64,000 nucleotides of DNA. Source: Candidatus Latescibacterota bacterium. GTDB taxonomy: Bacteria > Latescibacterota > UBA2968 > GCA-2709665. Positions 1 to 63,633 of the stretch are shown piece by piece (the stretch's first letter is position 1; every line of letters starts with the position of its first letter). The stretch covers positions 3,936,001 through 4,000,000 of the forward strand of contig OZ252100.1 in assembly GCA_965248435.1 (NCBI GenBank), given 5' to 3'. A program made the translations under genes and the position numbers. Under the pieces are notes generated by a model that did not search any database, was not told where the DNA came from, and was given only the letters and a program-made list of their open reading frames with translations.

Positions 1-494
1 ACCGCGACGTCGTCGAGCGAGTACGCATCGACGAACTGGGTCGGGTGCGCGGTGGCCGACCCGATCGCAAAGTGACTCAGAACCAACGGTGGTTGCTCCT
101 GCGCAGCAAAGCAAATGTCACGAGCAAAGAAGACAGAGTGTCGCTAAGAGAATTGCTTTCTGCAAACAAACGCCTCTACACGGTATATCTCCTCAAAGAG
201 GATCTCAATCATCTCTGGTCTTATCGATCCAGAGCTGCGGCCAACAGATTCTGGAATCAGTGGTATCGACGCGCCATCTACAGCAAGATCGAGCCACTCA
301 AGAAATTCGCACGCAATCTGAAGACGTATATGCCAGGAATCCTAGCTCACTGTGACTATCCCATCGGGACAAGCCTGATTGAGGGAATTAACAACAAAAT
401 CAAGGTCATCAAGCGGATGGCATATGGCTTCAGGGATGATAATTATTTCTTTCTTAGAATCCGCCACGCCTTCCCCGGAAATCGGTGATGAACC
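1..494 (+). mobile_element. ISL3-family insertion sequence, 3' part (cut by window edge)
   Basis: Matches 41491-41984 apart from one synonymous SNP seen by eye. Ends in right IR CCCCGGAAATCGGTGATGAACC, followed by TTTACAAA. Confidence 0.95.
45..488 (+). CDS. ISL3 transposase, C-terminal part (gene starts before the window)
   Basis: ISL3 C-terminal motif EGINNKIKVIKRMAYGFRD; same protein as 40764..41978. Confidence 0.95.
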   Translation: MRGGRPDRKVTQNQRWLLLRSKANVTSKEDRVSLRELLSANKRLYTVYLLKEDLNHLWSYRSRAAANRFWNQWYRRAIYSKIEPLKKFARNLKTYMPGILAHCDYPIGTSLIEGINNKIKVIKRMAYGFRDDNYFFLRIRHAFPGNR

Positions 495-554
495 TTTACA
501 AAGGCTCTTCACCAAATTCCGGGGAGGGTGGGGGATTTCGAGGCAAATACAGAC

Positions 555-1609
555 CCTGAGTTCAATAAGGAAGTGCAACACTTAGGGTAGCAACTGTCCT
601 ATCCTAAGTGTATGGGAAACAATTACAAGCATCTTACGATAGACGAACGCGAGCAGATTGCGCTTTGTCGAGCCACTGGTGCAAGCCTTAGAGATATTGC
701 CAAGGCCCTTGACCGGAGCGCCAGCACGATTTCAAGAGAGTTGAAACGTAATCCGTCCCCGATAGCTGAGAGTTACTCGGGCCTCCAGGCTCACAGAAGG
801 GCTGAGAAACGTAAGCGGGAGGCCGGCAAGCGGAAACGGCTGAAGAATCCGGTTATCCGGCGATATGTCGAGACCAAACTCAAGCAAGGATGGTCTCCCG
901 AGTTGATCGCTGGGAGGCTTCCCGAGGAGCGTCCGAGCGCGGGTATCAGCCACGAAGCCATCTACCAGTATATCTACGATCCAAAGGTGCACAAGCAGCG
1001 GGATCTGGTTGCTTGCTTATCCCGAGCTCACAAAAAACGAAAGCCGCGGTGGCATACCCGAAAACACCGGGAAAGCCACATTCCAGGCCGTATTTCGATC
1101 GATCGACGTCCCCGTTACATCGAAAAACGGAAACAACCTGGCCACTGGGAATCCGACACCATCATCTCTCGTGAGAGCAAACAGGCCGTTGGCGCTTGTC
1201 TTGAGCGATCGTCGAGATACCTACACCTGGCTAAGCTGGCAAAGAACGGACCCTCGGAGGTCGCCGAAGCGATTAATCGACGCCTTGGGCGACATCCTCC
1301 CCACATGAGGAAGAGCATCACATATGACAACGGATCCGAAAACGGCCAACATCAACGGGTCAACGAGGTGCTTGGCACCAAATCCTATTTCTGCAAACCG
1401 TTCCACAGCTGGGAGCGAGGCGCTGTGGAAAACGCTATCGGTCTGGTCCGCAGATACCTCCCCAAGAAGACAGACTTCTCAAAGGTCAGCAAACACGAGT
1501 TAAAGAAAATTCAGAACCGGATCAACAACCGACCAAGAAAATGTCTTAACTTCAAAACACCAGCTGAAGTCTTCAAGTCCAAGTGTTGCACTTAGTCATT
1601 GAATCCAGC
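555..1609 (+). mobile_element. IS30-family insertion sequence, copy 1 (1055 bp)
   Basis: Imperfect terminal IRs CCTGAGTTCAATAAGGAAGTGCAACACTT / GCTGGATTCAATGACTAAGTGCAACACTT; 3-bp TSD GAC (552-554, 1610-1612). Confidence 0.95.
612..1595 (+). CDS. IS30-family transposase
   Basis: N-terminal HTH (RSASTISRELKRN), WSPELIAG, and DDE motifs GHWESDT / TYDNGSE / WERGAVEN. Confidence 0.97.
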   Translation: MGNNYKHLTIDEREQIALCRATGASLRDIAKALDRSASTISRELKRNPSPIAESYSGLQAHRRAEKRKREAGKRKRLKNPVIRRYVETKLKQGWSPELIAGRLPEERPSAGISHEAIYQYIYDPKVHKQRDLVACLSRAHKKRKPRWHTRKHRESHIPGRISIDRRPRYIEKRKQPGHWESDTIISRESKQAVGACLERSSRYLHLAKLAKNGPSEVAEAINRRLGRHPPHMRKSITYDNGSENGQHQRVNEVLGTKSYFCKPFHSWERGAVENAIGLVRRYLPKKTDFSKVSKHELKKIQNRINNRPRKCLNFKTPAEVFKSKCCT

Positions 1610-1988
1610 GACATGATTCTTGGTCACCAAGCGTTCGCCTCCACCCCACCCAACATCCATGCCTCCGGCGGCCTACTTTTCTTGTCTCGCCACAAGAAAA
1701 GTAGGCAAAAGAAAGGCTCCGCTCAGGCGCCGCGGGGCTCGGGCCGCGGCACCTTACCCTCAGTGGAAAAAACGATCACGGCAGGAAGGCCAAATCCTCA
1801 CCACGTGCTCACGATCACTGAGGAACCAATCCGCTGGGAGGAGAAATCCACTCCTTGCAAGGTAAGTCGCACACCGCGGCCCTGACGGACTTGAGTGATA
1901 CAGTTCGCAAGTTCCAAGACCCTTCACAAATCGGCCAGTTCTACAATTAGAGCACATTACCTTAGCCCCCAACATTTGACGAAGAACC

Positions 1989-2122
1989 TTTCCAAAGGGG
2001 GGACATTGCTCTAAATGATGTGGATTCTTTATTCAGAAAGCTAATTCTTCCCCCTTTGAAAAAGCATGTCCCGAGCTTGCCGAGGGAGGGGATTGAGGGG
2101 GATTTCAAGATGCATCACTGCA
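1989..2122. repeat. Palindromic C/G-tract intergenic repeat (REP/REPIN-like family 1), right part
   Basis: TTTCCAAAGGGGGG-spacer-CCCCCTTTGAAAAAG...GGGGATTGAGGGGGATTTCAAGATGCATCACTGCA; spacer nearly identical to the 40595-40655 region. Confidence 0.8.
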
Positions 2123-6353: not shown

Positions 6354-6398
6354 AGAGGATCAATGGTTCAGATGGAAACGAATCGTCCTTGCCGAAAC

Positions 6399-6460
6399 AA
6401 ATCCCCCCTGCCCCCCTTTGGAAAAGGGGGATTGAGGGGGATTTCAGAATGCATCACTGC
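6399..6460. repeat. REP-like family 1, compact unoccupied copy
   Basis: AAATCCCCCCTGCCCCCCTTTGGAAAAGGGGGATTGAGGGGGATTT hairpin followed by the CAGAATGCATCACTGC tail. Confidence 0.8.
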
Positions 6461-6533
6461 ACACAGCGCAAGGGACGGGCGCAGCAAAAGGGCTGAATTC
6501 TTCCGCCCATCTTGTGCTCGCTGTGGGACCTGC

Positions 6534-6642
6534 ACCCACCCCGCCCCTGCGGGGCACCCCTCCCAGGAGGGGATTCTGAGTGACCGTGTCGTAAACGCAG
6601 TGAATATGAAGTCCCCTCCTCGGAGGGGATTTAGGGGTGGGT
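6534..6642. repeat. REPIN-like repeat, family 2
   Basis: ACCCACCCC...CCCCTCCCAGGAGGGGA...TCCCCTCCTCGGAGGGGA...GGGGTGGGT nested palindromes; left half recurs at 54085-54125. Confidence 0.75.
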
Positions 6643-6645
6643 CTT

Positions 6646-7395: not shown

Positions 7396-7481
7396 CGGGG
7401 TGTTGAGAAGTTTCGGTCCAAGCGTTACCTTGCACGGGAAAGCTTTCCTGTATTCGTGGTTGTCCTGCTGGGGATTGTTCA

Positions 7482-8804: not shown

Positions 8805-8907
8805 GGCGTCCAGGTCAAACGTCCACCAGACGGTATGAATTGTTCATCATTTTATGACCCTTAGATGCTTGTGCCTCTTACCCTACTTTTCTTGTGTGGG
8901 TCGATGG

Positions 8908-9480
8908 TTGACATGGAAACAAATCCCCCCTACCCCCCTTTTCCAAAGGTTCTTCTCCAAATGTTGGGGTTAAGGTAATATGCTCTATTGTAGAACTCGC
9001 TGACTTGCCGGCGGCCCTGGGACTCTCGAAATGCATCGCTCAAAGTGATCAGGGCCGCGGTGTGCGACTCCTATGCAACCTCGTTCTTTCACCTCCCACG
9101 CGGTTAGGGCCTCTGGTCCGGTCCCATAGTGGACGTCAAGCGGGGCAGGAGTCCCGCCCTGATTGCCGCCACCGTCCTTTCCATTGAGGGTGAGGTGCCG
9201 CGGCCGAGCCCCCGCGGCGTTTGAGCGGCGCCCTTCTTTTGTCTACTTTTCTTGTGGCGAGACAAGAAAAGTAGACCGCCGGAGGCTTGGGGTTCTGGGG
9301 TGGGGCGAACAGATTAGGGAGCAACGAGAGATAGCCACTTTTTCCTCTTGCCCTCCCCTAGATTCGGTGAAGAGCCTTTCCAAAGGGGGAAGGTTACTCT
9401 TGCTGAAAGAGTACCCATTCAGAAAATAGATTCTTCCACCTTTCCTAAAGGGGGATTAAGGGGATTTCAAAATGCATCAC
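8908..9480. repeat. REP-like family 1 copy hosting element B
   Basis: TTGACATGGAAACAAATCCCCCC... at left and GGGGGATTAAGGGGATTTCAAAATGCATCAC at right. Confidence 0.75.
8948..9376 (+). mobile_element. Non-autonomous ISL3-ended element, copy B (429 bp)
   Basis: Ends GGTTCTTCTCCAAATGTTGGGG and CCCCTAGATTCGGTGAAGAGCC; perfect 8-bp TSD TTTCCAAA (8940-8947, 9377-9384). Confidence 0.9.
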
Positions 9481-33291: not shown

Positions 33292-33305
33292 CCTGGAGGG
33301 AATCG

Positions 33306-34799: not shown

Positions 34800-34821
34800 A
34801 GAATGAAACAATAATCAATAT

Positions 34822-35841
34822 GCTGGATTCAATGACTAAGTGCAACACTTGGACTTGAAGACTTCAGCTGGTGTTTTGAAGTTAAGACATTTTCTTGGTC
34901 GGTTGTTGATCCGGTTCTGAATTTTCTTTAACTCGTGTTTGCTGACCTTTGAGAAGTCTGTCTTCTTGGGGAGGTATCTGCGGACCAGACCGATAGCGTT
35001 TTCCACAGCGCCTCGCTCCCAGCTGTGGAACGGTTTGCAGAAATAGGATTTGGTGCCAAGCACCTCGTTGACCCGTTGATGTTGGCCGTTTTCGGATCCG
35101 TTGTCATATGTGATGCTCTTCCTCATGTGGGGAGGATGTCGCCCAAGGCGTCGATTAATCGCTTCGGCGACCTCCGAGGGTCCGTTCTTTGCCAGCTTAG
35201 CCAGGTGTAGGTATCTCGACGATCGCTCAAGACAAGCGCCAACGGCCTGTTTGCTCTCACGAGAGATGATGGTGTCGGATTCCCAGTGGCCAGGTTGTTT
35301 CCGTTTTTCGATGTAACGGGGACGTCGATCGATCGAAATACGGCCTGGAATGTGGCTTTCCCGGTGTTTTCGGGTATGCCACCGCGGCTTTCGTTTTTTG
35401 TGAGCTCGGGATAAGCAAGCAACCAGATCCCGCTGCTTGTGCACCTTTGGATCGTAGATATACTGGTAGATGGCTTCGTGGCTGATACCCGCGCTCGGAC
35501 GCTCCTCGGGAAGCCTCCCAGCGATCAACTCGGGAGACCATCCTTGCTTGAGTTTGGTCTCGACATATCGCCGGATAACCGGATTCTTCAGCCGTTTCCG
35601 CTTGCCGGCCTCCCGCTTACGTTTCTCAGCCCTTCTGTGAGCCTGGAGGCCCGAGTAACTCTCAGCTATCGGGGACGGATTACGTTTCAACTCTCTTGAA
35701 ATCGTGCTGGCGCTCCGGTCAAGGGCCTTGGCAATATCTCTAAGGCTTGCACCAGTGGCTCGACTGCTTGTAATTGTTTCCCATACACTTAGGATAGGAC
35801 AGTTGCTACCCTAAGTGTTGCACTTCCTTATTGAACTCGGG
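34822..35841 (-). mobile_element. IS30 copy 2 (1020 bp) with a 35-bp deletion frameshifting the transposase
   Basis: Same IRs as copy 1; TSD TAT; lacks AAAGCGCAAT...CGTAAGA at 35764/35765 relative to copy 3. Confidence 0.93.
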
Positions 35842-35950
35842 TATCCAATATCGAATATCCAATGATCAAGGGCGATGAGAAACGCGTGGTTCACGAGTCG
35901 GTGAGCCCAATGCAACAATAGAGATTTGGTCCAAAAACCGGAGGGAATCG

Positions 35951-37444
35951 ATGGAACCGCTACTCAGCTATGCACGCGTCTTCGCCGGAGCGTCACGGTA
36001 TGATGAAGCAGGCAATGCGCACCCCTTTCATGCACCGGAAGGGATTTGCCTGAAGCTTACGCCTGCCGAGAAGTCGGACGTCGTGGTGGCGATGGACCGC
36101 CCGTGGGAAAGGATGATGATTTGCCACGTGACAGTGCGCCGTGATCAAGGCAAGTACCGGATGTGGTACGGGGCACGCAGCGGGCCCCCTCCTGACGAGC
36201 AGTTCTTGTGCTACGCCGAGAGCGAAGACGGATTTCAGTGGGAGAAACCGGAGCTGGGCCTGTATGAGTTCGAAGGGTCCAAGAAGAACAACATCTGTCT
36301 TGTAGGCCCCCATGCCATGCGAGGCTCCGTGTTCATCGACGAGAACCCTGAGGCCGAGGAACGGTACAAGAAGCTCGGTCATTCTCCCCGGTGGTACGAC
36401 GAAGAGGGCAAGGAGATCTCGAACAAAGAAGGCCTGGCGCGGTGGAAGGAACTGGGCGAGCAGGGCTACAACCGTGACGAGGTGAGGCAGAAGGTGCGTT
36501 TGGTGGGCACGCACCGGGCAATGACGTCTTCGGACGGAATCCACTGGACAGTGTTGAAAGAACCCATTTTTGAGGGCTTCTGCGACTCCCAAACGGTGGC
36601 GTATTTCGACGTCGAAAAGAAGAAGTACATCGGTTACTTCCGGACCACAATCGACGGCCGGAGGGCGGTGGGAATGTCGGAGACCAAAGACTTCTCGGCG
36701 TGGCCGGTACCAAAACCGATATTCGCGCCGGATGCGCTGGATGGTCCGAGTGACTCGTTATACACGAACGCGTACTCCCGCTATCCGGGAGCGGACTTGC
36801 ATCTGATGTTTCCGGCCGTGTTCCACCAGGTTACCGACAATACAGACATCCAGCTCGCCGTGAGTAGTGACGGGCGGAATTGGTCGAGGCCGTCCAGGGC
36901 AAGCATACTTGATTGTGGGGATTCGGAAAGCGGCGATGGCGGTGGAGTCTACGCCTCCGCTGCTCTCTTCATCTTGCCTGATGGTAGATTTGCGATTCCG
37001 TACCTGGCACAGAGATCACGCCATCATGAAGCGTTCTACCCAACCACCGACAAGGAAACACAGCTCCGTCTTGCGTTGTGGCCCGAGCATCGGCTCGGAG
37101 GCATACGGGCCGACAATCGCGGGGAGTTTACGCTCGAGAGTCGGATGATCGCCGGAGGGGAGCTTGTGCTGAACTCCCAGGCGGACAGAGGCGGATGGAT
37201 TCGGGCTGCGTTCTACGAGAACATCCCGCACCCCCCGGAGCCGGGGGAGCCGCTTCCCGGCTATTCCTTCGAAGATTGCGAACCGGTTTCGGGAAATCAT
37301 TTTCGGCAGCCGATGAAGTGGAAGGGCAGCTCCGATCTGTCGTCTCTGTCGGGGAAGAAGATCAACGTCCGGTTTCAGATGAACCGGGCGACCCTGTATG
37401 CGCTTGAGCTCGGAAAAGCGACCGACGAACGTCACAGTACGTGA
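35951..37444 (+). CDS. Beta-propeller hydrolase-like protein, paralog A2
   Basis: Colinear 497-aa near-duplicate of A1. Confidence 0.75.
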   Translation: MEPLLSYARVFAGASRYDEAGNAHPFHAPEGICLKLTPAEKSDVVVAMDRPWERMMICHVTVRRDQGKYRMWYGARSGPPPDEQFLCYAESEDGFQWEKPELGLYEFEGSKKNNICLVGPHAMRGSVFIDENPEAEERYKKLGHSPRWYDEEGKEISNKEGLARWKELGEQGYNRDEVRQKVRLVGTHRAMTSSDGIHWTVLKEPIFEGFCDSQTVAYFDVEKKKYIGYFRTTIDGRRAVGMSETKDFSAWPVPKPIFAPDALDGPSDSLYTNAYSRYPGADLHLMFPAVFHQVTDNTDIQLAVSSDGRNWSRPSRASILDCGDSESGDGGGVYASAALFILPDGRFAIPYLAQRSRHHEAFYPTTDKETQLRLALWPEHRLGGIRADNRGEFTLESRMIAGGELVLNSQADRGGWIRAAFYENIPHPPEPGEPLPGYSFEDCEPVSGNHFRQPMKWKGSSDLSSLSGKKINVRFQMNRATLYALELGKATDERHST

Positions 37445-37531
37445 AAAAAGAAACAATATCCAATAATCAAGGGCGATAAGAAACGCCTGGTTGACATTCG
37501 CCGGCGGCAACCCATAGATGGAGTTCCATTC

Positions 37532-38992
37532 GTGTCCGATCCCGATTGCCCAAACATCGTCCTGCTGATGACGGATCAGCAGAAGGCGTCGGCCGTCGGT
37601 TGCTACGGCAACCGTCACGTGCCGTCGCCGTTTCAGGATCGCATGGCGGCCGAAGGTATTGCGTTCACACAATGCTTCGCGAACTCATCGGTGTGTACGC
37701 CTTCCCGGGCCTCGATCATGACCGGGGTCAATCCGCTGGTGCATCAGTCTACGGCCGTGCAACATCGCGTGCCTTGGAACCTGCCGCAGTTTCCCGAACT
37801 GCTCAGCTGGCACGGCTATTTAAATGCCGCTTTCGGCCATTGTGAAGGTCCGCGCGGACTCGACCGCGGTTATCACCGGCAGAAGGATGGCAGCTCGGTG
37901 GGGCCGCTGCTCAATGCCAAGCGCACGTGGATGGACGCCGGCCGGGCCGACGTCGCGTGGGGGTACGGCCCCGTCGATTTGCCGGTCGAGGCGTCGCACG
38001 CCGCGCTGTTGACCGATGAAGCGATCCGAGCCCTGCGGGAGGCGAAGCATGCCGAGGCGCCATTCTTTCTGCAGCTATCCTTCGACGATCCGCATCAGCC
38101 TTATTGCGCGCCGCGTCCCTTCGATACGCTCGTCGATCCGATGGCCGTCGACCTTCCGCCACGCAAACCCACCGCAGGCCGGCCGGCGTGGCAGGAGAAG
38201 GTTGCGCGCGAGTGCGGGTCGCATCTCGCGTCGGACATGGACATGCGCAAAGCCATAAGCCACTACTACGGCATGATCGCGCATGCCAATGCCCAGATGG
38301 AACGGCTGTACGACGCCATGGATGCGCTTGGCCAACTGGACAACACCTGGTTCATCCTTACCTCCGACCACGGCGATTTCACCGGCGAGAAGAACCTCTA
38401 CGCCAAGTGCGAAACGACCTACGAATGTCTGCTCCGGGTACCCCTGATCATCCGACCTCCGGATTCGGTGCAAATGAAGAGGGGCATGCGTGTCGAGCAC
38501 CTCACGCAACTTGTCGACCTCATGCCCACCGTGCTCGGCCTCGCCGGCGTCAACGCCCCGCATTATATGCAGGGATACGATCTCATAGAATGGATCGCGC
38601 ATGGCGCAACGAAGCCGCTGCGCGACACGGCCTTCGCACAAGTGGGCGCCTACGAAGGCGATCTCAAAACCACCTGGCCCGGCGGGATGCCCGAGTCGGG
38701 GCGACATCCTTCCCTCGTGCAGCACGCACGCACCCTTGGCATCGCCTACACCCGGGATCCGGACTATGGCGATGAAGCCTACGACCTGCGCGCCGATCCT
38801 CATGAGTTGGACAACCTGCTCAATCCCGGCAAAGCCGCCCCGCCCGCGGAAGTGGAGGACCTGCGGGGCCGGCTCGATGGATTCGAAGCCACGTGCCTTG
38901 CGCTGCGTGACGAGTTGAAAATTCGCCCCGGGGACCGCGGGTATCACGAAGGCACCAGATGGCTCGAAGCGCAGGCACGTAGTTATCCGTGA
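37532..38992 (+). CDS. Sulfatase-like hydrolase
   Basis: PNIVLLMTDQQ, CTPSRASIMTG, DPHQP and SDHGD. Confidence 0.9.
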   Translation: MSDPDCPNIVLLMTDQQKASAVGCYGNRHVPSPFQDRMAAEGIAFTQCFANSSVCTPSRASIMTGVNPLVHQSTAVQHRVPWNLPQFPELLSWHGYLNAAFGHCEGPRGLDRGYHRQKDGSSVGPLLNAKRTWMDAGRADVAWGYGPVDLPVEASHAALLTDEAIRALREAKHAEAPFFLQLSFDDPHQPYCAPRPFDTLVDPMAVDLPPRKPTAGRPAWQEKVARECGSHLASDMDMRKAISHYYGMIAHANAQMERLYDAMDALGQLDNTWFILTSDHGDFTGEKNLYAKCETTYECLLRVPLIIRPPDSVQMKRGMRVEHLTQLVDLMPTVLGLAGVNAPHYMQGYDLIEWIAHGATKPLRDTAFAQVGAYEGDLKTTWPGGMPESGRHPSLVQHARTLGIAYTRDPDYGDEAYDLRADPHELDNLLNPGKAAPPAEVEDLRGRLDGFEATCLALRDELKIRPGDRGYHEGTRWLEAQARSYP

Positions 38993-39048
38993 TTTTGTCG
39001 TAGATTACCGGACCAAACGAGATTTGGTCCGAAAACCGGAGGGAATCG

Positions 39049-40542
39049 ATGGAACCGCTCCTCAGCTATGCGCGCGTCTTCGCCGGAGCGTCACGGTATG
39101 ATGAAGCAGGCAATGCGCACCCCTTTCATGCACCGGAAGGGATTTGTCTGAAGTTTACGCCTGCCGAGAAGTCGGACGTCGTGGTGGCGATGGACCGCCC
39201 GTGGGAAAGGATGATGATTAGCCACGTGACAGTGCGCCGTGATCAAGGCAAGTACCGGATGTGGTACGGGGCGCGCAGCGGGCCCCCTCCTGACGAGCAG
39301 TTCTTGTGCTACGCTGAAAGCGAAGACGGATTTCAGTGGGAGAAACCGGAGCTGGGCCTGTATGAGTTCGAAGGGTCCAAGAAGAACAACATCTGTCTTG
39401 TTGGCCCCCATGCTATGCGAGGCTCCGTGTTTATCGACGAGAACCCTGATGCGACGGAACGGTACAAGAAGCTCGGTCATTGTCCTCAGTGGTACAACGA
39501 AGAGGGCAAGGAGATCTCGAACAAAGAAGGCCTGGCGCGGTGGAAGGAACTGGGCGAGCAGGGCTACAACCGTGACGAGGTGAGGCAGAAGGTGCGTTTG
39601 GTGGGCACGCACCGGGCAATGGCGTCTTCGGACGGAATCCACTGGACAGTGTTGAAAGAACCCATTTTCGAGGGCTTCTGTGACACCCAAACGGTGGCGT
39701 ATTTCGATGTGGAAAAGAGGAAGTACATCGGCTACTTTCGGACCACAATCGACGGCCGGAGGGCGGTGGGAATGTCGGAGACCAAAGACTTCTCGGCGTG
39801 GCCGGTACCAAAACCGATATTCGCGCCGGATGCGCTGGATGGTCCGAGTGACTCGTTTTACTCGAACTCGTGCTCCCGCTATCCGGGAGCGGATCTACAC
39901 ATCATGTTTCCGGCTGTTTTCCACCAGGTCGACTGCAGCGTGGACATTCAACTAGCGGTTAGCAGCGACGGTGTCAACTGGTCAAGGCCTTCGCGAGAAC
40001 CGATCGTGCGTTGCCTCGGCGAAAACGGCAGTGGCGACGAAATGGTACGCGGCGGAGCGGGACTGGTCGTACTGACTGACGGGCGATTCGCGCTGCCGTA
40101 CGTCGGAACAATGGGTCGCCATCACGAAACGTATTATCGGGAAATTAAACCGGGCAGCCAGTTCCGGCTTGCGATCTGGCCCGAGCATCGGCTCGGCGGC
40201 ATACGGGCTGACAATCGCGGTGAATTTACGCTTGAGAGTCGGATGATCGCCGGCGGGGAGCTTGTACTGAACTGCCAGGCGGACCGAGGCGGATGGATTC
40301 GGGCTGCGCTCTACGAGAACATCCCGCACCCCCCGGAGCCGGGGGAACCGCTTCCCGGCTATTCCTTCGAAGATTGCGAACCGGTTTCGGGAAATCAGGT
40401 TCGGCAGCCAATGAAGTGGAAGGGCAGCTCCGATCTGTCATCTCTCTCGGGGAAGAAGATCAACGTCCGGTTTCAGATGAACCGGGCGACCCTGTATGCG
40501 CTTGAGCTCGGAAAAGCGACCGACGAACGCCACAGTATTTGA
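39049..40542 (+). CDS. Beta-propeller hydrolase-like protein, paralog A3
   Basis: Colinear 497-aa near-duplicate of A1/A2 with one divergent internal block. Confidence 0.75.
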   Translation: MEPLLSYARVFAGASRYDEAGNAHPFHAPEGICLKFTPAEKSDVVVAMDRPWERMMISHVTVRRDQGKYRMWYGARSGPPPDEQFLCYAESEDGFQWEKPELGLYEFEGSKKNNICLVGPHAMRGSVFIDENPDATERYKKLGHCPQWYNEEGKEISNKEGLARWKELGEQGYNRDEVRQKVRLVGTHRAMASSDGIHWTVLKEPIFEGFCDTQTVAYFDVEKRKYIGYFRTTIDGRRAVGMSETKDFSAWPVPKPIFAPDALDGPSDSFYSNSCSRYPGADLHIMFPAVFHQVDCSVDIQLAVSSDGVNWSRPSREPIVRCLGENGSGDEMVRGGAGLVVLTDGRFALPYVGTMGRHHETYYREIKPGSQFRLAIWPEHRLGGIRADNRGEFTLESRMIAGGELVLNCQADRGGWIRAALYENIPHPPEPGEPLPGYSFEDCEPVSGNQVRQPMKWKGSSDLSSLSGKKINVRFQMNRATLYALELGKATDERHSI

Positions 40543-40662
40543 CCACAAGAAGGAATTGACATTGAAATAAATCCCCCCTGCCCCCCTTTTTCAAAGGGGG
40601 GACATTGCTCTAAATGATGTGGATTCTCTATTCAGAAAGCTAATACTTCCCCCTTTGTTAAA

Positions 40663-41984
40663 GGTTCTTCGTCAAATGTTGGGGTAGAAAATAGACGAGA
40701 CAACGGCATCCGACCTATCTTCAGAGTATCCTCTATAAACCTGAAGGTAGAAAGGAGAGCGCGTTGTCTCAGGTGCAAAGTATATCCTTACTGGGTAGGT
40801 GGCAAGGGTTTGTGGTAGTTGGCATTCAACGTCAGGAAGCAGACGTTGTTGGAGTCGAGTTACGTCCCAAGACAGGCCGCCTTCCTCGGTGTGGTGGTTG
40901 CGGGAAGAAGGCGTACCGGGTTCATGATTGGGCAGTGCGATTTGCTCAGGATTTGCCGATCTGGGGGTCTCGAACCAGGCTGATCGTGCACTCCCGGCGC
41001 GTCCTATGTCCCCGATGTGGCTGCCGGACGGAGCAGATTGACTGGCTGGATCGGTATTCACGGGTCACTCAACGCCTGGCTGAAAGTGTTGTTCGATTGT
41101 GCGAAGTCCTGCCCATCCAGCACGTGGCACAGCACTATGGGATGAGCTGGAATACCGTGAAGCGCATTCACAAGACCCATCTCCAGCAAGAGCTGGAACC
41201 GCCGGATTTTGCCAGGGTCACGGTGATCGGCATGGACGAATTTGCGATCCAAAAGGGCCATCGCTACGCCACAGTGATTGTTGACATGGAGACCAAGCGT
41301 GTCCTATGGGTGGGTCGCGGCCGAAGTCGAGAGGACATCCGCCCGTTTTTCCACCTCCTTGGAGAAGAAGGCTGCAAGCAACTTGAGGCCGTGGCGATGG
41401 ACATGAACGGTGCCTACGAAGAGGAGGTGCGATCCCATTGTCCGGATGTGGACATCATCTATGACCTGTATCACGTTAAAGCCAAGTACAACCGCGACGT
41501 CGTCGAGCGAGTACGCATCGACGAACTGGGTCGGGTGCGCGGTGGCCGACCCGATCGCAAAGTGACTCAGAACCAACGGTGGTTGCTCCTGCGCAGCAAA
41601 GCAAATGTCACGAGCAAAGAAGACAGAGTGTCGCTAAGAGAATTGCTTTCTGCAAACAAACGCCTCTACACGGTATACCTCCTCAAAGAGGATCTCAATC
41701 ATCTCTGGTCTTATCGATCCAGAGCTGCGGCCAACAGATTCTGGAATCAGTGGTATCGACGCGCCATCTACAGCAAGATCGAGCCACTCAAGAAATTCGC
41801 ACGCAATCTGAAGACGTATATGCCAGGAATCCTAGCTCACTGTGACTATCCCATCGGGACAAGCCTGATTGAGGGAATTAACAACAAAATCAAGGTCATC
41901 AAGCGGATGGCATATGGCTTCAGGGATGATAATTATTTCTTTCTTAGAATCCGCCACGCCTTCCCCGGAAATCGGTGATGAACC
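40663..41984 (+). mobile_element. ISL3-family insertion sequence, complete (1322 bp)
   Basis: Ends GGTTCTTCGTCAAATGTTGGGG and CCCCGGAAATCGGTGATGAACC; 8-bp TSD TTGTTAAA (40655-40662, 41985-41992). Confidence 0.96.
40764..41978 (+). CDS. ISL3 transposase
   Basis: Zn finger CGGCG...CPRCG; IGMDEF, VAMDM, DLYHV and EGINNKIK. Confidence 0.97.
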   Translation: MSQVQSISLLGRWQGFVVVGIQRQEADVVGVELRPKTGRLPRCGGCGKKAYRVHDWAVRFAQDLPIWGSRTRLIVHSRRVLCPRCGCRTEQIDWLDRYSRVTQRLAESVVRLCEVLPIQHVAQHYGMSWNTVKRIHKTHLQQELEPPDFARVTVIGMDEFAIQKGHRYATVIVDMETKRVLWVGRGRSREDIRPFFHLLGEEGCKQLEAVAMDMNGAYEEEVRSHCPDVDIIYDLYHVKAKYNRDVVERVRIDELGRVRGGRPDRKVTQNQRWLLLRSKANVTSKEDRVSLRELLSANKRLYTVYLLKEDLNHLWSYRSRAAANRFWNQWYRRAIYSKIEPLKKFARNLKTYMPGILAHCDYPIGTSLIEGINNKIKVIKRMAYGFRDDNYFFLRIRHAFPGNR

Positions 41985-42147
41985 TTGTTAAAGGGGGATT
42001 GAGGGGGATTTCAAGATGCATCACTGCAGTGATGGTTAGGCGCGATATTTTTTGCGAGTTTCACAGACAGCATGCAACTTCAAGGTGGATTGTTCTTATT
42101 CGCCCCAAATGAGAAGAATCGCTTAATTTACGATCCAATATCGAATA

Positions 42148-43202
42148 GCTGGATTCAATGACTAAGTGCAACACTTGGACTTGAAGACTTCAGCTGGTGT
42201 TTTGAAGTTAAGACATTTTCTTGGTCGGTTGTTGATCCGGTTCTGAATTTTCTTTAACTCGTGTTTGCTGACCTTTGAGAAGTCTGTCTTCTTGGGGAGG
42301 TATCTGCGGACCAGACCGATAGCGTTTTCCACAGCGCCTCGCTCCCAGCTGTGGAACGGTTTGCAGAAATAGGATTTGGTGCCAAGCACCTCGTTGACCC
42401 GTTGATGTTGGCCGTTTTCGGATCCGTTGTCATATGTGATGCTCTTCCTCATGTGGGGAGGATGTCGCCCAAGGCGTCGATTAATCGCTTCGGCGACCTC
42501 CGAGGGTCCGTTCTTTGCCAGCTTAGCCAGGTGTAGGTATCTCGACGATCGCTCAAGACAAGCGCCAACGGCCTGTTTGCTCTCACGAGAGATGATGGTG
42601 TCGGATTCCCAGTGGCCAGGTTGTTTCCGTTTTTCGATGTAACGGGGACGTCGATCGATCGAAATACGGCCTGGAATGTGGCTTTCCCGGTGTTTTCGGG
42701 TATGCCACCGCGGCTTTCGTTTTTTGTGAGCTCGGGATAAGCAAGCAACCAGATCCCGCTGCTTGTGCACCTTTGGATCGTAGATATACTGGTAGATGGC
42801 TTCGTGGCTGATACCCGCGCTCGGACGCTCCTCGGGAAGCCTCCCAGCGATCAACTCGGGAGACCATCCTTGCTTGAGTTTGGTCTCGACATATCGCCGG
42901 ATAACCGGATTCTTCAGCCGTTTCCGCTTGCCGGCCTCCCGCTTACGTTTCTCAGCCCTTCTGTGAGCCTGGAGGCCCGAGTAACTCTCAGCTATCGGGG
43001 ACGGATTACGTTTCAACTCTCTTGAAATCGTGCTGGCGCTCCGGTCAAGGGCCTTGGCAATATCTCTAAGGCTTGCACCAGTGGCTCGACAAAGCGCAAT
43101 CTGCTCGCGTTCGTCTATCGTAAGATGCTTGTAATTGTTTCCCATACACTTAGGATAGGACAGTTGCTACCCTAAGTGTTGCACTTCCTTATTGAACTCG
43201 GG
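42148..43202 (-). mobile_element. IS30 copy 3 (1055 bp, intact)
   Basis: Same IRs; TSD ATA (42145-42147, 43203-43205). Confidence 0.95.
42162..43145 (-). CDS. IS30-family transposase
   Basis: Protein identical to 612..1595. Confidence 0.97.
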   Translation of the reverse strand: MGNNYKHLTIDEREQIALCRATGASLRDIAKALDRSASTISRELKRNPSPIAESYSGLQAHRRAEKRKREAGKRKRLKNPVIRRYVETKLKQGWSPELIAGRLPEERPSAGISHEAIYQYIYDPKVHKQRDLVACLSRAHKKRKPRWHTRKHRESHIPGRISIDRRPRYIEKRKQPGHWESDTIISRESKQAVGACLERSSRYLHLAKLAKNGPSEVAEAINRRLGRHPPHMRKSITYDNGSENGQHQRVNEVLGTKSYFCKPFHSWERGAVENAIGLVRRYLPKKTDFSKVSKHELKKIQNRINNRPRKCLNFKTPAEVFKSKCCT

Positions 43203-43244
43203 ATATCGAATGATCAAGGGCGATGAGAAAGGCAAGGACAGTTC

Positions 43245-44042
43245 ATGGAGAAAGAACTGCTGCACATGGAGGTCAACGGCTGGTGCATCCTCGAAGGTGT
43301 GATCCCACGAGATGACGTGGCCGCCGTGCGCCGGAGCGTCGAGGAAACCATCGCCCGGCACGGCCGGTCCGACGCGCCGGAGAACCTCGGCCACCTTCGC
43401 TCGATCATCAATTACGACCAGTCGTTTGCGCCCTACCTGGCCGACGAGCGCCTCCTCGGCATCGCGAGCGCCCTGCTCGGCCAGCACGTCCGGATCTCCT
43501 TCACAACCGCGATGGTCAACGGCCCCGGTGTAAAGCGGGGCGGCTGGCACGCCGACTGGCCCTTCAATCAGAAGAACGCGGGGCACATCCCCGCGCCCTA
43601 TCCCGACGCCGTGATGCACCTGACCACCCTCTGGATGCTTTCGGATTTCACCGGAGAAAACGGCGGCACTTTCATCCTGCCCGGCAGCCATCGCTCAGCA
43701 AACAACCCGACAGGAAACAACGGCGTCGACCCTGAGGCCTCCCTGCCGGGCGAGTTCCAGGTCACGGGGAATGCCGGTAGCATACTGGTCATGGACAGCC
43801 GGCTGTGGCACGCCATCGCCCCGAACACCTCAGACCGTCCACGCGTCGGTATGGCGATCCGGTATGCCCCCTGGTGGCTCAACCTGGACGTGCTATTACA
43901 CGGCTCGGACGAGCGGGCCCGGATGGTGGACGAACCGGGAGAGAAGGAAAACCTCAACTTTCCCGTGTCTCAGGAAGTCTTTGAAACTCTGCCCGACAAG
44001 GTGAAACCCCTATACCGACATTGTGTTGAAAGGAAGGATTGA
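43245..44042 (+). CDS. Phytanoyl-CoA dioxygenase (PhyH)-family Fe(II)/2OG oxygenase
   Basis: WHADW, NGGTFILPGSH and RLWH...PNTSDRPR. Confidence 0.92.
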   Translation: MEKELLHMEVNGWCILEGVIPRDDVAAVRRSVEETIARHGRSDAPENLGHLRSIINYDQSFAPYLADERLLGIASALLGQHVRISFTTAMVNGPGVKRGGWHADWPFNQKNAGHIPAPYPDAVMHLTTLWMLSDFTGENGGTFILPGSHRSANNPTGNNGVDPEASLPGEFQVTGNAGSILVMDSRLWHAIAPNTSDRPRVGMAIRYAPWWLNLDVLLHGSDERARMVDEPGEKENLNFPVSQEVFETLPDKVKPLYRHCVERKD

Positions 44043-44043
44043 G

Positions 44044-45585
44044 ATGGATGGCGTCATCGACATCGGAAACCAGAAGCAGCTGTTCATCGACGACAAATGG
44101 TTCGCCTCCCAACGGGGCATGACCCTCACGGCCAACCCGCCCGTCAAAGCGGAACGGGTGCTTCGTTCGGAGAGACCGTGGGAGGTCCAGAGCATCTCCA
44201 CTGCCACCGTCCTTGAAGACGGCGGCGTCTACAAGATGTGGTACCGCTGCTCGGGCCCGGGCAGCAAGCAGACGGCCCCGCACGCCTGGACGATGATCTG
44301 CTACGCCGTGAGTGAGGACGGGCTCCACTGGGAACGGCAGAACGTCAACCTGTTCGAGTGGGAGGGGATCGCAGAGAACAACATCCTGATGCCGGGCGCG
44401 CACGGGGGCGTCACGATCGACCCGAACGGCCCGGACGAACACCGCTACAAGGCTTTGATCCGCGTCGTGGAAAACGACGTCTGGCCGGGCTCCAAGGGCG
44501 CGGTCTTCACCCTGCACGAGGGCAAGATGTGGTCCGAGCTCTACCTTGCCACGAGCCCGGACGGCATCCGCTGGCAGCGCCAGGAGCCCTCCGCGCTCCC
44601 GTTCTTTCACGACACGAACAACCAGCTCTTCTTCGACACGCGCCTGGGCAAATACGTCGCCTATGTCCGCACGCAGGCCAGGAAGCGGACGGTCGGCCGC
44701 GTCGAATTCGACGACCCGATGGACCTGCCCTGGCCGTATCGCGACAACCCCGACGCCCCGCGCGGTCCGGGACGCTCCCGCAGGGCGGCCGGCGGGGAGA
44801 TCCCGGTCGCCATCACTTGCGACGAGTCCGACCCGCCCGACACCGACCTCTACACCCCCTGCGTGCATCCATACCCATGGGCGGCGGACGCCTACTTCGC
44901 CTTCCCCTCGCCCTACCGGCACTACCCCGTCGGCGAGGTCTCCCTGAAACCGGGCAATCCGCCCGACCCGACGCTGAAGGGCCCCCTGGGAGACGAGCGG
45001 GGCGTCTACAGCAACTCCGGCCCGGTCGAGGTGCAGATGGCGGTCAGCCGGGATGGGATCGTGTTCTCCCGCCCCGACCGCCGCCCCTACGTTCCTCTCG
45101 GCCTGGTCGGGTCCTGGGACGGCGGCCAGACCTTCATGGGGCTCGGTATGATCCGAAAGGGAGATGAAATCTGGCAGTATTACCACGGCACAAAACGCCT
45201 CCACGGGGTGAAGGACAACCGCTCCGCGGACGGTGATGGTAGCATCTTCCGCCTCGTCCAGCGCCTGGACGGGTTCGTCTCCGCCGATGCCGACTACACG
45301 GGCGCGGAGTTCACCACGCCTCTGTTGGAGTTCTCCGGTTCCCACCTGCAACTGAACGCCGACTGCTCGGCGATGGGCGAGATCTGGGTCGAGATCCGGG
45401 ACGATCGGAATGTCCCGGTACCGGGCTACACGATGGAGGACACGATCAGCGTGGAACGCAACCAGACGGCTGCGCCCGTCGTCTGGCGGGAACGGGAGGA
45501 CGTCGCCGAACTGGTCGGCCGTCCCGTGCGCTTGCATTTCAAGCTGCGCGCGTGTAAGCTCTACGCGTTTCAATTTGCGGGGTAG
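44044..45585 (+). CDS. Beta-propeller hydrolase-like protein, paralog B1
   Basis: QLFIDD, RPWE, YKMWY, SEDGLHW, SPDGIRW, SRDGIVF and RLDGFVS. Confidence 0.75.
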   Translation: MDGVIDIGNQKQLFIDDKWFASQRGMTLTANPPVKAERVLRSERPWEVQSISTATVLEDGGVYKMWYRCSGPGSKQTAPHAWTMICYAVSEDGLHWERQNVNLFEWEGIAENNILMPGAHGGVTIDPNGPDEHRYKALIRVVENDVWPGSKGAVFTLHEGKMWSELYLATSPDGIRWQRQEPSALPFFHDTNNQLFFDTRLGKYVAYVRTQARKRTVGRVEFDDPMDLPWPYRDNPDAPRGPGRSRRAAGGEIPVAITCDESDPPDTDLYTPCVHPYPWAADAYFAFPSPYRHYPVGEVSLKPGNPPDPTLKGPLGDERGVYSNSGPVEVQMAVSRDGIVFSRPDRRPYVPLGLVGSWDGGQTFMGLGMIRKGDEIWQYYHGTKRLHGVKDNRSADGDGSIFRLVQRLDGFVSADADYTGAEFTTPLLEFSGSHLQLNADCSAMGEIWVEIRDDRNVPVPGYTMEDTISVERNQTAAPVVWREREDVAELVGRPVRLHFKLRACKLYAFQFAG

Positions 45586-45655
45586 AGACGAGCGCGCGTC
45601 CCAACATCCTGTTTATGATCGCGCACGATCATCTGCGTGGAAAGGAGGGATTGAG

Positions 45656-47206
45656 ATGGGTAGCGTTATCGACATCGGAAACCAGAAGCAGCTCTTCATC
45701 GACAACAAATGGTTCTCCTCCCAGCGGGGCATGACGCTCACGGCCAACCCGCCCGTGAAGGCCGAACGCGTCTTCGTTCCGGAGAAGCCGTGGGAGTCCT
45801 CGAGAATCTCTCTCTCACCCACGATTCTCGAGGACGGTGGCATTTACAAGATGTGGTACCGCTGCTCGGGCCCGGGCAGCAAGGAGACGTCCCCGCACGG
45901 CTGGTCGATGATCTGCTACGCCGTGAGTGATGACGGGATCCACTGGGAGCGGCAGAACGTCAACCTGTTCGAGTGGGAGGGGATCGCAGAGAACAACATC
46001 CTGATGCCAGGCGCGCACGGGGGCGTCACGATCGACCCGAACGGCCCGGACGAACACAGATACAAGGCTTTGATCCGCGTCGTGGAAAACGACGTCTGGC
46101 CGGGCTCCAAGGGCGCGGTCTTCACCCGGCGCGAGGGGTGGGGGTGGTCGGAGCTCTATCTTGCCACGAGCCCGGACGGCATTCACTGGACGCGCCAGGA
46201 GCCCTCCGCGCTCCCGTTCTTTCACGACACGCACAACCACTTCTTCTTCGACGCCCGCCTGGACAAATACGTCGCCTATGTCCGCACGCACGCCAGGAAG
46301 CGGACCGTTGGCCGCGTCGAATTCGACGACCCGATGGACCTGCCCTGGCCCTATCACGACAACCCCGACGCCCCGCGCGGTCCCGGCCGCACCCGCAGGG
46401 AGGCCGGCGGCGAAATCCCGATCGCGCTTACCTGCGACGAGTCCGACCCGCCCGACACCGACCTCTACACCCCCTTCGTGCATCTATACCCCTGGGCGGC
46501 GGACGCCTATTTCGCATTTCCCTCCCCCTACCGGCACTACCCCGTCGGCGAGGTCTCCCTGAAGCCGGGCGATCCGCCAGACCCGACGCTGAAGGGCCCT
46601 TTGGGCGATGAGCGGGGCGTCTACAGCAACTCCGGCCCGGTGGAGGTGCACATGGCAGTCAGCCGGGACGGGATCGTGTTCTCCCGCCCCGACCGCCGAC
46701 CCTATGTTCCCCTCGGTTTGGTTGGCTCTTGGGATGCTGGCCAGACTTATATGGGACTCGGCATGATCCGGAAAGGGGACGAAATCTGGCAGTATTATCT
46801 TGCCATGGATCACGTTCACGGCCTGTTCGACAGGAACTCTGCGGACAGGGCTGGAGGCATCTGCCGCCTCGTCCAGCGCCTGGACGGGTTCATTTCCGCC
46901 GACGCGGACTACACCGGCGCGGAGTTCACCACTCCGCTCTTGGAGTTCTCCGGTTCCCACCTGCAACTGAACGCCGACTGCTCGGCGATGGGGGAGATCT
47001 GGGTGGAGATCCGGGACGATCGAAACGTCCCGGTGCCAGGCTACACGATGGAAGACTCAGTCAGCGTTGAGCGCAACCAGACGGCCGCACCCGTCGTCTG
47101 GCGGGAGCGGGAGGACGTAGCAGAACTGGTCGGCCGTCCCGTACGCCTGCATTTTAAGCTCCGGGCCTCCAAACTCTACGCGTTTCACTTTGCGGAGAAG
47201 AGATGA
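45656..47206 (+). CDS. Beta-propeller hydrolase-like protein, paralog B2
   Basis: Tandem near-duplicate of B1; RBS AGGAGG. Confidence 0.75.
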   Translation: MGSVIDIGNQKQLFIDNKWFSSQRGMTLTANPPVKAERVFVPEKPWESSRISLSPTILEDGGIYKMWYRCSGPGSKETSPHGWSMICYAVSDDGIHWERQNVNLFEWEGIAENNILMPGAHGGVTIDPNGPDEHRYKALIRVVENDVWPGSKGAVFTRREGWGWSELYLATSPDGIHWTRQEPSALPFFHDTHNHFFFDARLDKYVAYVRTHARKRTVGRVEFDDPMDLPWPYHDNPDAPRGPGRTRREAGGEIPIALTCDESDPPDTDLYTPFVHLYPWAADAYFAFPSPYRHYPVGEVSLKPGDPPDPTLKGPLGDERGVYSNSGPVEVHMAVSRDGIVFSRPDRRPYVPLGLVGSWDAGQTYMGLGMIRKGDEIWQYYLAMDHVHGLFDRNSADRAGGICRLVQRLDGFISADADYTGAEFTTPLLEFSGSHLQLNADCSAMGEIWVEIRDDRNVPVPGYTMEDSVSVERNQTAAPVVWREREDVAELVGRPVRLHFKLRASKLYAFHFAEKR

Positions 47207-48564: not shown

Positions 48565-48637
48565 TCACGGCATTTCTGCTCTCTTCTCCAAAAAAGCCGT
48601 CTGACACGAGGACGGAATTGCGTATTTTGACCCCTAT

Positions 48638-53689: not shown

Positions 53690-54338
53690 TTGACATTGAG
53701 AGAAATCCCCCCTGCCCCCCTTTGTAAAGGTTCTTCGCCGAATGTTGGGGTTAGGCCATCAAGCTCTATTTGTAGAACTCGCCAGCTAGCCAGCGTCCCT
53801 GTAACTCAGGAGATGCATAGCTCAAAGCCATCAGGGCCGCGGTGTGCGACTTACCGTGCAACAAGGGGATTTCACCTCCCGGCGGGTTGGTTTTCAGTGA
53901 TCGCGAGCGTGTGGTGAGGATGTGGCCCACCTGCCATGATTGTTTTTTCCACTGAGGGTAAGGTGCCGCGGCCCGAGCCCCCCCGGCGTTTGAGGGGCGC
54001 CTTTCTTTTGCCTACTTTTCTTGTGGCGTGACAAGAAAAGTAGGCCGCCGGAGGCATGGTCTTATTTCTGGTTCTCGCGATACAACCCACCCCGCCCCTT
54101 CGGGGCACCCCTCCCAGGAGGGGACGGATTGTGCAGCCCCGGAGACATCGTCATTGCAGAGCGGAGCAAACGGCTTTGGAGTCAGAGAACATCGTCTCGA
54201 GATACGCCACGCCTTCCCCCGGAAATCGGTGATGAACCTTTACAAAGGGGGAGGTTGCTCTTTCTGAAAGAATACCTATCCATGAATAGATTCTTCACCC
54301 TTTGGAAAGGGGGATTGAGGGGGATTTCAAAACGCATC
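53690..54338. repeat. REP-like family 1 copy hosting element C
   Basis: TTGACATTGAGAGAAATCCCCCC... at left and GGGGGATTGAGGGGGATTTCAAAACGCATC at right. Confidence 0.75.
53729..54238 (+). mobile_element. Non-autonomous ISL3-ended element, copy C (510 bp)
   Basis: Left end GGTTCTTCGCCGAATGTTGGGG; shared core; right end CGCCACGCCTTCCCCCGGAAATCGGTGATGAACC, nearly identical to the autonomous ISL3 end. Confidence 0.88.
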
Positions 54339-61020: not shown

Positions 61021-61108
61021 CGGGTACCGGGTACCGTAAAAGACAGAATTTTAAGAGTCAGGATTTTTGTTGGTTTTCGAACCCCGGTACCCTGTACCCG
61101 GTACCCGG
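61021..61108. repeat. GGTACC-heptamer inverted-repeat spacer, copy 2
   Basis: Nearly identical to 58908-58996. Confidence 0.85.
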
Positions 61109-61123
61109 ATTTCAAGGGGTAAA

Positions 61124-63027: not shown

Positions 63028-63070
63028 AAAGCCGTCGTTCGTCGGTAATCAATTTCTGATCATTATCGGG

Positions 63071-63633
63071 AAATCCCCCTCAGTCCCCCTTTGTTAAAGG
63101 GGGAGGATTCTACTCCGGAGGTGAGTACTCTTTCAGCTAAGTAATGTTCCCCCTTTGGAAAGGTTCTTCGCCGAATGTTGGGGTTAAGGTATTAAGCTCT
63201 AATTGTAGACTCGCCCGCTTGCCGGCGTCTCTGTAACTCGCGAGATGCATCGCTCAAAGTCATCAGGGCCGCGGTGTGCGACTCCGATGCAACCTCGTTC
63301 TTTCACCTCCCACGCGGTTAGGCCCTCTGGGCCGGTCCCATAGTGGGCGTTCTGTGGGGCAGGAGTCCCGCCCTGATTGCCGCCCCCGTCCTTTCCACTG
63401 AGGGTGAGGTGCCGCGGCCCGAGCCCCCGCGGCGTTTGAGCGGCGCCCTTCTTTTGTCTACTTTTCTTGTGGCGAGACAAGAAAAGTAGACCGCCGGAGG
63501 CATGGGGTTCTTGGGTGGGGCGAACAGCCTAGGGAGCAAGGAGAGATAGCCACTTTTTTCTCGAAATCTGCTCATGACCTCCCCTAAATTCGGTGAAGAG
63601 CCTTTGGAAAAGGGGGGTAGCGGGGATTTGAAT
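63071..63633. repeat. REP-like family 1 copy (reverse orientation) hosting element D
   Basis: AAATCCCCCTCAGTCCCCCTTTGTTAAAGGGGG ... CCCCCTTTGGAAA[element]TTTGGAAAAGGGGGG..GGGGATTT. Confidence 0.75.
63162..63602 (+). mobile_element. Non-autonomous ISL3-ended element, copy D (441 bp)
   Basis: Ends GGTTCTTCGCCGAATGTTGGGG and CCCCTAAATTCGGTGAAGAGCC; perfect TSD TTTGGAAA (63154-63161, 63603-63610). Confidence 0.9.

Follow-up and report, generated by a model that had tools for sequence, protein, structure and literature searches.

All ten full-length copies of an ISL3-family insertion sequence (IS) in the genome of a Candidatus Latescibacterota bacterium (G000 below) lie at one fixed position of a dispersed hairpin repeat. 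The copy studied here is contained in a stretch of 64,000 nucleotides (contig OZ252100.1, positions 3,936,001 to 4,000,000), which we refer to as the window. [quoted passage not shown] With most copies in the repeat and a fixed position within it, this is REP-type targeting, a known behaviour for which ISL3 is a new IS family.

The 1322-bp element (Table 1) is bounded by inverted ends, IRL being GGTTCTTCGTCAAATGTTGGGG and IRR, given as reverse complement, GGTTCATCACCGATTTCCGGGG. Both terminal inverted repeats are GG-initiated, the ends beginning GGTTCTTCG... and GGTTCATCA... The 404-residue transposase matches the Pfam profile DDE_Tnp_ISL3 over its whole length (PF01610, E 6.9e-66, profile positions 1-240 of 240) and additionally HTH_Tnp_ISL3 (PF13542, E 3.4e-15) and Zn_ribbon_ISL3 (PF14690, E 1e-9). 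Elements of the ISL3 family have inverted repeats at their ends and duplicate 8 bp of the target. In the window the IS and both copies of TTGTTAAA are bracketed by CCCCC(T) on the left and GGGGG on the right. Across the genome, which measures 5.67 Mb at 56.6% G+C, the full-length copies are 99.8-100% identical; five of the ten have identical 8-mers on both sides, and in a sixth the identical pair is the outer duplication of a composite element described below. The element is an ordinary ISL3-family DDE transposon that makes 8-bp target duplications.

The roughly 170 bp around the window IS make up one repeat unit, which runs from a left arm through hairpin 1, a spacer and hairpin 2 to a right arm (GGGGGATTGAGGGGGATTT). 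To the left of the IS, the left arm AAATCCCCCCTGCCCCCC is followed by hairpin 1 (C6-TTTTTCAAA-G6, about 40581-40603) and, after roughly 57 nt of spacer, by the C-run of hairpin 2. Repeat units start with AAATCCCCCC, and the fuller form reads AAATCCCCCC-TGY-CCCCCC-loop-GGGGGG; the pattern has 62 matches in this genome, and the reversed pattern has 0. Copies of this short, GC-rich palindromic landing pad are numerous and intergenic; some stand alone, some form inverted doublets separated by a spacer, and others make up mosaics. The hairpin thus described belongs to a REP/REPIN-like intergenic repeat. In the DNA fold TTT and AAA are paired and the loop proper comprises 3 nt, so the 8-bp duplication corresponds to the A/T apex of the hairpin, which is more than the loop. 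A first-pass annotation of the window had placed the insertions in the loop; their position at the top of the hairpin is borne out, whereas the target is the wider apex. Its other readings of the window agree with ours: all the sites it listed for intact ISL3-type termini abut an apex 8-mer, a degenerate end at about 2246 falling outside 'intact'; no open reading frame (ORF) of at least 100 amino acids is split, in line with its statement that no gene is interrupted; and the compact unoccupied copy at 6399-6460 is present as described, with a DNA fold of -15.5 kcal/mol (z -2.7).

The same placement is found genome-wide. We searched for termini with three terminal-repeat types, which gave 88 matches at up to 5 mismatches and 62 termini at up to 4. 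The list of 37 insertion events was partly curated by hand: one terminus of another repeat (948816, whose flank is common with 2051487) and eight internal junction termini were dropped, one paralogous pair was merged, and five termini with 5 mismatches were added. The hairpin apex holds, besides the ten full-length copies, 27 of the 37 ISL3-type events in all, a count for which the automatic rule and the reading by eye disagree on two rows that cancel each other. Each full-length copy lies between a C-run and a G-run, or adjoins a MITE end that is itself placed there. Of 44 repeat-associated termini, 31 place the element end 8 nt and 10 place it 9 nt from the C-run (41 in all), and the 8-bp duplication is therefore the apex itself. 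Either hairpin and either orientation can be used, as the first-pass annotation had proposed: nine full-length copies occupy hairpin 1 and one hairpin 2, with IRL toward the left arm in six and IRR in three.

As background, the word TTTNNAAA occurs 1254 times in the genome, 27 times as an empty C4..G4 loop (51 when this is defined widely); windows with 7/8 A/T or more number 68,625, and 15,012 of these lie outside every ORF of at least 100 amino acids. Under four null models the binomial probability of at least 27 of 34 ranges from 9e-16 for the most generous null to 3e-31; one of the four admits only AT-rich sites abutting any GC hairpin (78 of 1457). The insertions are accordingly not proportional to TTTNNAAA words.

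An IS30-like element present in 32 copies of at least 98.8% identity served as internal control. It is never found in the apex (0/32 versus 10/10 for ISL3; Fisher p = 6.8e-10), so selection alone is not the cause. The unoccupied state of the window site is preserved in a paralogue at G000:C1:3882041-3882300, reading CCCCC-TTTGTTAAA-GGGGG, against CCCCCT-TTGTTAAA-[IS]-TTGTTAAA-GGGGG in the window; it is the exact window site minus the IS and one copy of the duplication. Between 27 and 51 hairpins are empty in G000, and the repeat is also present in the relatives G001 (same genus) and G005, both of which have no full-length ISL3 match, the sole match in G001 being a 70-residue fragment (E 1.8e-6). 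The C/G tracts are therefore not cargo of the IS, and copies outside the repeat lack them. This supports the earlier placement of the tracts outside the unit that moves. Spacers and 8-mers differ among the ISL3-bearing units, which hence represent separate events, except for a 2816-bp composite.

For a comparison of empty with filled sites, the paralogue provides the empty state, whereas G001 does not. The repeat pattern has 62 matches in G000 versus 2 in G001, and the repeat is absent at four of four orthologous G001 loci (ISL3 copies 1, 9 and 10 and the window copy; flanks collinear); as G001 lacks the whole repeat at all four, there is no IS-only empty site there. Contigs of the metagenome run X1 contain joints across the IS (40611>41989/41990 and 40661>42002), the sides of which are 21-36 nt long and lie inside the repeat; such joints are explained by the existence of unoccupied paralogues.

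We also compared related transposases and their insertion sites in other genomes. Relatives with 48-64% amino-acid identity were found at 80 loci in many phyla. At 49 usable loci the target 8-mer is at least 7/8 A/T in 38, and a GC hairpin abuts or spans the target in 24, compared to 179 of 1814 random positions (9.9%) and 43 of 813 other AT-rich 8-mers (5.3%). At two of the relative loci, in Geomonas anaerohicana and in a metagenome-assembled genome (MAG) of Omnitrophota, this very repeat surrounds the IS. Copies of related ISL3 elements occupy the apex in G031 (Geomonas; 133 pattern matches, 1/1 copies), G042 (194 matches, 3/3), G087 (59 matches, 1/1) and G032 (the Omnitrophota MAG; 14 matches, 1/1), that is, at 6/6 copies in four other genomes and, together with G000, at 16/16 in five. 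In G061 the pattern has 2 matches and 0/13 copies are in an apex, with an IS protein 75-77% identical to that of G031; all 13 copies lie in 8-mers that are mostly A/T-rich, with a perfect 8-bp duplication at 12. The apex 8-mers of the Geobacteraceae (TTCGCAAA, TCGCAAAA or TTTGCGAA) are merely 5/8 A/T, which indicates that the C/G bracket or the hairpin counts and that A/T richness alone is insufficient. The apex preference is a property of this clade of ISL3 transposases, which otherwise insert into A/T tracts, several of them beside GC-rich terminator-like hairpins.

An exact 21-mer of the repeat occurs at no fewer than 122 loci in many phyla. Among the matches listed (loci numbered L122-L243), loop and G-run follow the 21-mer in 117/124, and the hosts include Geomonas spp., Desulfobacteraceae, Gallionellaceae, Thiobacillus, Poribacteria, Chloroflexia, Okeania, Bacteroidetes and Spirochaetia. 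This distribution, the apex placement of related ISL3 elements elsewhere and the 13/13 A/T tracts in a genome where the repeat is nearly absent go beyond the first-pass annotation. A gene for a REP-associated tyrosine transposase (RAYT, Y1) flanked by the repeat was not found: there were five PF01797 matches, none with a C/G hairpin in its 1.5-kb flanks. The repeat may have a distant or unrecognised mobiliser. Repeat units of Geomonas sp. Red32 (L151, L172, L230) contain short remnants similar to ISL3 ends, e.g. CCCCGGTATTTCCCGATGAACC followed by TTTGACAAA and the G-run, which suggests old insertions that decayed in place.

Mechanistically, the two staggered cuts are placed at the G.C/A.T boundaries of both arms, so that the duplicated 8-mer is the apex. 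The transposase complex may read a two-fold-symmetric site, either as duplex, with rigid G/C tracts and a bendable A/T core, or as extruded hairpin; the two modes of recognition are not separable because all hairpin targets are one repeat family. Being intergenic and multi-copy, the repeat serves as a harmless landing pad.

The harmlessness of the repeat might also mean that the IS inserts at random among AT-rich sites and that purifying selection leaves the copies that landed there. The repeat is intergenic, no ORF of at least 100 amino acids is split, and ISL3 members such as IS31831 are reported, in the accessible part of PMC1590026, to favour A/T-rich regions. However, with the 15,012 AT-rich windows outside ORFs on offer, ten of ten near-identical copies lie in about 80 loops, at a distance to the C-run fixed at 8-9 nt; the IS30-like element, under the same selection, is absent from the apex, and single-copy relatives in other genomes are in the apex as well, which makes this explanation very improbable. 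It appears improbable, too, that the IS spread from one repeat copy to another via the flanking arms, by homologous recombination or gene conversion rather than by targeted transposition, even though every copy has homologous arms, the IS copies are 99.8-100% identical, and particular 8-mers (TTTGTAAA, TTGCTAAA) adjoin one and the same IS end at several loci; the flanks of copies 1 and 10 are moreover collinear in G001, so that their mismatched duplications are local. Such transfer does not predict that both orientations and both hairpins are occupied, that the ISL3 copies have five different perfect 8-bp duplications, with more among the MITEs, that the spacers beside the IS vary by locus, or that insertions outside the repeat exist, and the homology available on the spacer side past the 8-mer is the 6-nt G-run only. 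Conversion may account for some imperfect duplications, but not for the whole pattern.

That the C/G tracts belong to the mobile unit, as half-hairpins of the IS or as repeat and IS cargo copied together, is hardly credible. One 2816-bp composite did move as a unit, and the repeat is lineage-specific in the comparison with G001 (62 versus 2 matches, absence at the 4/4 orthologous loci). Empty hairpins are, however, present in G000 and at more than 100 other loci across phyla, the empty paralogue of the window site exists, the 8-bp duplications directly adjoin the IS ends, termini outside the repeat have no tracts, and arms and spacers differ among ISL3-bearing units.

Several observations weigh against a simple preference for the apex. 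Ten of the 37 events, all of them MITE ends that are older or degenerate, lie outside the repeat. The preference is thus not absolute, and the list of 37 was partly hand-curated from 62 termini. An empty allele in a sister strain was not found. The hairpin targets all come from one repeat family. The relative loci are not independent, with several per genome, and the hairpin criterion applied to them is arbitrary; in G061, GC-hairpin neighbours number 4/13 by a strict perfect-stem rule and about eight by eye with imperfect stems, the terminator-like reading of these sites thus resting partly on imperfect stems judged by eye. Finally, the flanking 8-mers are non-identical at 4/10 ISL3 copies (1, 2, 6 and 10), and duplications are imperfect at 4/8 MITEs with two host-facing ends, neither of which is predicted by a plain staggered cut.

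The 8-mers recur by IS end: copies 1, 2, 4 and 9 have TTTGTAAA next to IRL, copies 2 and 10 have TTGCTAAA next to IRR, and TTTGTAAA is found beside 10 A-type ends versus 1 for its complement (p = 0.012). A gross inversion or deletion between IS copies was considered as the cause at copies 1 and 10 and rejected, as their flanks adjoin in G001, with 298 and 86 bp between them; with the flanks collinear, the mismatched duplications arose locally. The imperfect duplications might stem from short conversion tracts, template switching at the quasi-palindrome, an orientation-biased target or carry-over of the donor 8-mer. The last of these is part of a bolder proposal that we regard as unlikely, according to which it is the geometry of a G/C-bracketed hairpin apex, as a cruciform or as a hairpin exposed at the replication fork, and not base sequence, that the ISL3 clade recognises; the REPIN-like repeat would be a safe harbour across phyla with terminator hairpins as fallback, and imperfect duplications would reflect hairpin-specific integration, the donor 8-mer travelling with one IS end and the target apex remaining unduplicated.

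IS1397 inserts in the central part of a palindromic unit. REP-targeting ISs are known from the IS3, IS110, IS4, IS256 and IS5 families, according to the accessible text of PMC1525189 (Tobes and Pareja 2006), in which ISL3 does not figure. There, IS1397 and ISKpn1 (IS3 family; targeting the palindromic units found in bacterial interspersed mosaic elements, BIMEs) appear as DDE ISs specific to a REP-type palindrome, with the choice attributed to the transposase, as would fit our case; here, by contrast, the IS is of the ISL3 family, the repeat is another one, the 8-bp duplication is the whole A/T apex, and the behaviour is known from genome sequence alone. IS621, ISPpu9, ISPpu10 and ISPa11 (IS110 family) are likewise found with all or nearly all copies in REPs (e.g. 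ISPpu9 7/7 and ISPa11 6/6 in Table 2 of the same source). These IS110 elements lack typical inverted repeats and use another recombinase, in contrast to the inverted repeat-bounded DDE IS with target duplication described here. By the title of a 2024 paper, IS110 elements are reportedly tied to bridge-RNA guidance. For ISRm22 (IS4), ISRm5 (IS256), ISNm1106 (IS5) and ISPsy8 (IS3), REP association was established by genome counting, as in this work (PMC1525189, Table 2). The canonical ISL3 member IS31831 shares the transposase domains, the GG-initiated inverted repeats and the 8-bp duplication; for its targets, the part of PMC1590026 at hand reports an A/T-rich preference, whereas in our case one defined position of one repeat is used, bracketed by C and G runs.

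The landing pad resembles REP, REPIN and BIME sequences as a short GC-rich, multi-copy, intergenic palindrome that forms inverted doublets. REP families are usually lineage-specific, whereas near-identical 21-mers of this repeat occur in many phyla. The terminal tags GTAG or CGTC mark two large REP superfamilies (PMC3733652, in the portion available); the present repeat has no such tag but AAAT-C6-N3-C6, its units beginning with AAATCCCCCC. An excess of hairpin plus T-tract sequences just outside ISs of several families is described in the accessible part of a recent study (ISME J 2026, PMC13548323), in which upstream terminator-like sequences are interpreted as control of transposase expression. 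That pattern agrees with the hairpins beside the relatives of our IS; as the duplication itself is the A/T tract here, our data point to target choice rather than to the expression control considered in that text. Our literature search found no case of REP targeting by ISL3, although the per-family supplement of PMC13548323, which was outside that search, may bear on ISL3. A search with sequence words returned irrelevant matches only, and the portion of the RepRanger paper at hand has no passage on C/G-run repeats.

REP targeting shows how a transposon can persist without harm to its host, and ISL3 widens this rule. The contrast across genomes, with 16/16 copies in the apex in five and 13/13 in A/T tracts in one, amounts to a natural experiment on site choice by a DDE transposase, and a C6/G6 palindrome that serves as landing pad in many phyla deserves a study of its own. 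A site-restricted ISL3 element could be a low-damage insertion tool in planctomycetes or Geobacteraceae.

Table 1 Repeat units, ISL3 copies and ISL3-type MITEs in the window (window coordinates).
Feature	Position	Strand	Basis or remark
3' part of second ISL3 copy (genome 3935173-3936494)	1..494	+	letters read, genome copy list
8-mer TTTACAAA between ISL3 right end and MITE end; internal junction of 2816-bp composite	495..502	.	
ISL3-type MITE interrupted by IS30-like element (ORF 612-1595)	503..1988	-	
Compact unoccupied repeat, one extended hairpin C6-TTTGGAAAA-G5 inside AAATCCCCC...GGGGGATTT	6399..6460	+	letters read, DNA fold
MITE, 429 bp, in hairpin 1; perfect duplication TTTCCAAA (8940-8947, 9377-9384)	8948..9376	+	
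Left part of repeat unit	40550..40654	+	letters read, fold; 95%-identical paralogue at G000:C1:3882162-3882268
Target duplication, left copy, TTGTTAAA	40655..40662	.	letters read
Autonomous ISL3-family IS, 1322 bp, intact	40663..41984	+	ends read; 10 genome copies
Transposase ORF, 404 amino acids, single ORF of ISL3	40764..41978	+	Pfam
Target duplication, right copy, TTGTTAAA	41985..41992	.	letters read
Hairpin 2 G-run and right arm of repeat, GGGGGATTGAGGGGGATTTCAAGATGCATCACTGCA	41993..42028	+	letters read
MITE, 510 bp; right 37 nt identical to ISL3 right end	53729..54238	+	
Unoccupied hairpin, in repeat unit that holds MITE 63162..63602	63084-63103		
MITE, 441 bp; perfect duplication TTTGGAAA (63154-63161, 63603-63610)	63162..63602	+	

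The MITEs (422-627 bp) fit derivatives of the ISL3 element by their matching ends and 8-bp duplication, and appear to be without transposase by the list of ORFs of at least 100 amino acids only. Compared with IRL, their A end has in most copies 1-3 mismatches over 22 positions; their B end is identical to the final 37 nt of the IS, and perfect duplications are found at four MITEs. The flanks of the 510-bp MITE, TTTGTAAA on the left and TTTACAAA on the right, are reverse complements and form no direct repeat. At the left edge of the window (1-1996), ISL3, TTTACAAA and the MITE interrupted by the IS30-like element make up the 2816-bp composite, which has two genome copies, the other at G000:C1:3785098-3787913. 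All three 8-mers of that other copy are TTTACAAA, whereas the outer pair of the window copy is TTTCCAAA (on the right at 1989-1996, followed by GGGGGG and the remaining repeat to about 2124). The new outer pair at the window locus indicates that the composite moved as a unit via its outer ends.

The degenerate terminus at about 2246, with flank TTAGTAAA, lies outside any hairpin. A degenerate end at G000:C1:3935110, 890 nt left of the window, has the same outside 8-mer, and the two look like one old MITE outside any hairpin, the interior of which has been replaced by a whole repeat unit and the composite. MITE copies are arranged head to tail at G000:C1:2244274/2244280 and 3815324/3815330, where the abutted ends, 5 bp apart (CC-TGTAA-GG), resemble a circle or tandem-dimer junction. 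Beside the 441-bp MITE, the stop codon TAA (63095-63097) of the ORF 61067-63097 lies inside the apex TTTGTTAAA of the unoccupied hairpin, the last codons and the stop of this ORF being supplied by the repeat.

The interior of the MITEs is a separate repeat of about 270 nt (window 9007-9317, 53788-54075 and 63221-63540) with 82 blast matches, many of them without ISL3 ends; 22 of the 82 lie within 4.96-5.04 Mb, and the repeat is present in G001 as well. Comparison of its loci (L244-L263) revealed a conserved long-range helix GGGCCGCGG...CCGCGGCC, in which 97.2% of cells are paired versus 36-58% with slid partners. Two subfamilies differ in both partners of six pairs, and the numerous C-G to U-G changes are consistent with one strand. 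Rfam gave no match in the window at gathering score and none at E <=1 in 6300-9450, which covers the compact repeat and a MITE. By these sequence comparisons the repeat looks like an RNA. The first-pass annotation had envisaged three tiers: the landing-pad repeat and the autonomous ISL3 are upheld by the counts, the empty paralogue and the IS30-like control, while the RNA-bearing passenger is only partly supported.

Some further features of the surroundings were noted. The window stretch 33000-50000 is 85-97% identical to G001, compared to about 77-83% around other ISL3 copies, and is either unusually conserved or recently exchanged. It includes two paralogous 497-residue ORFs (35951-37444 and 39049-40542); the one of the two that was tested had no Pfam match. 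A single-copy element of 1306 bp at G000:C1:3641372-3642677, with TG...CA ends and an rve-type integrase ORF, is placed at the border of apex and stem in hairpin 2 of a repeat unit; from reading its sequence it is probably IS481/IS3-like, and in the contigs of run X1 an end matching it appears, loose, at window 40664. The IS30-like element, 1055 bp long and located at 42148-43202 and in 31 further places, has a site preference of its own, with flanks rich in ...AATC / GATT..., and one of its copies lies within an ISL3-type MITE.

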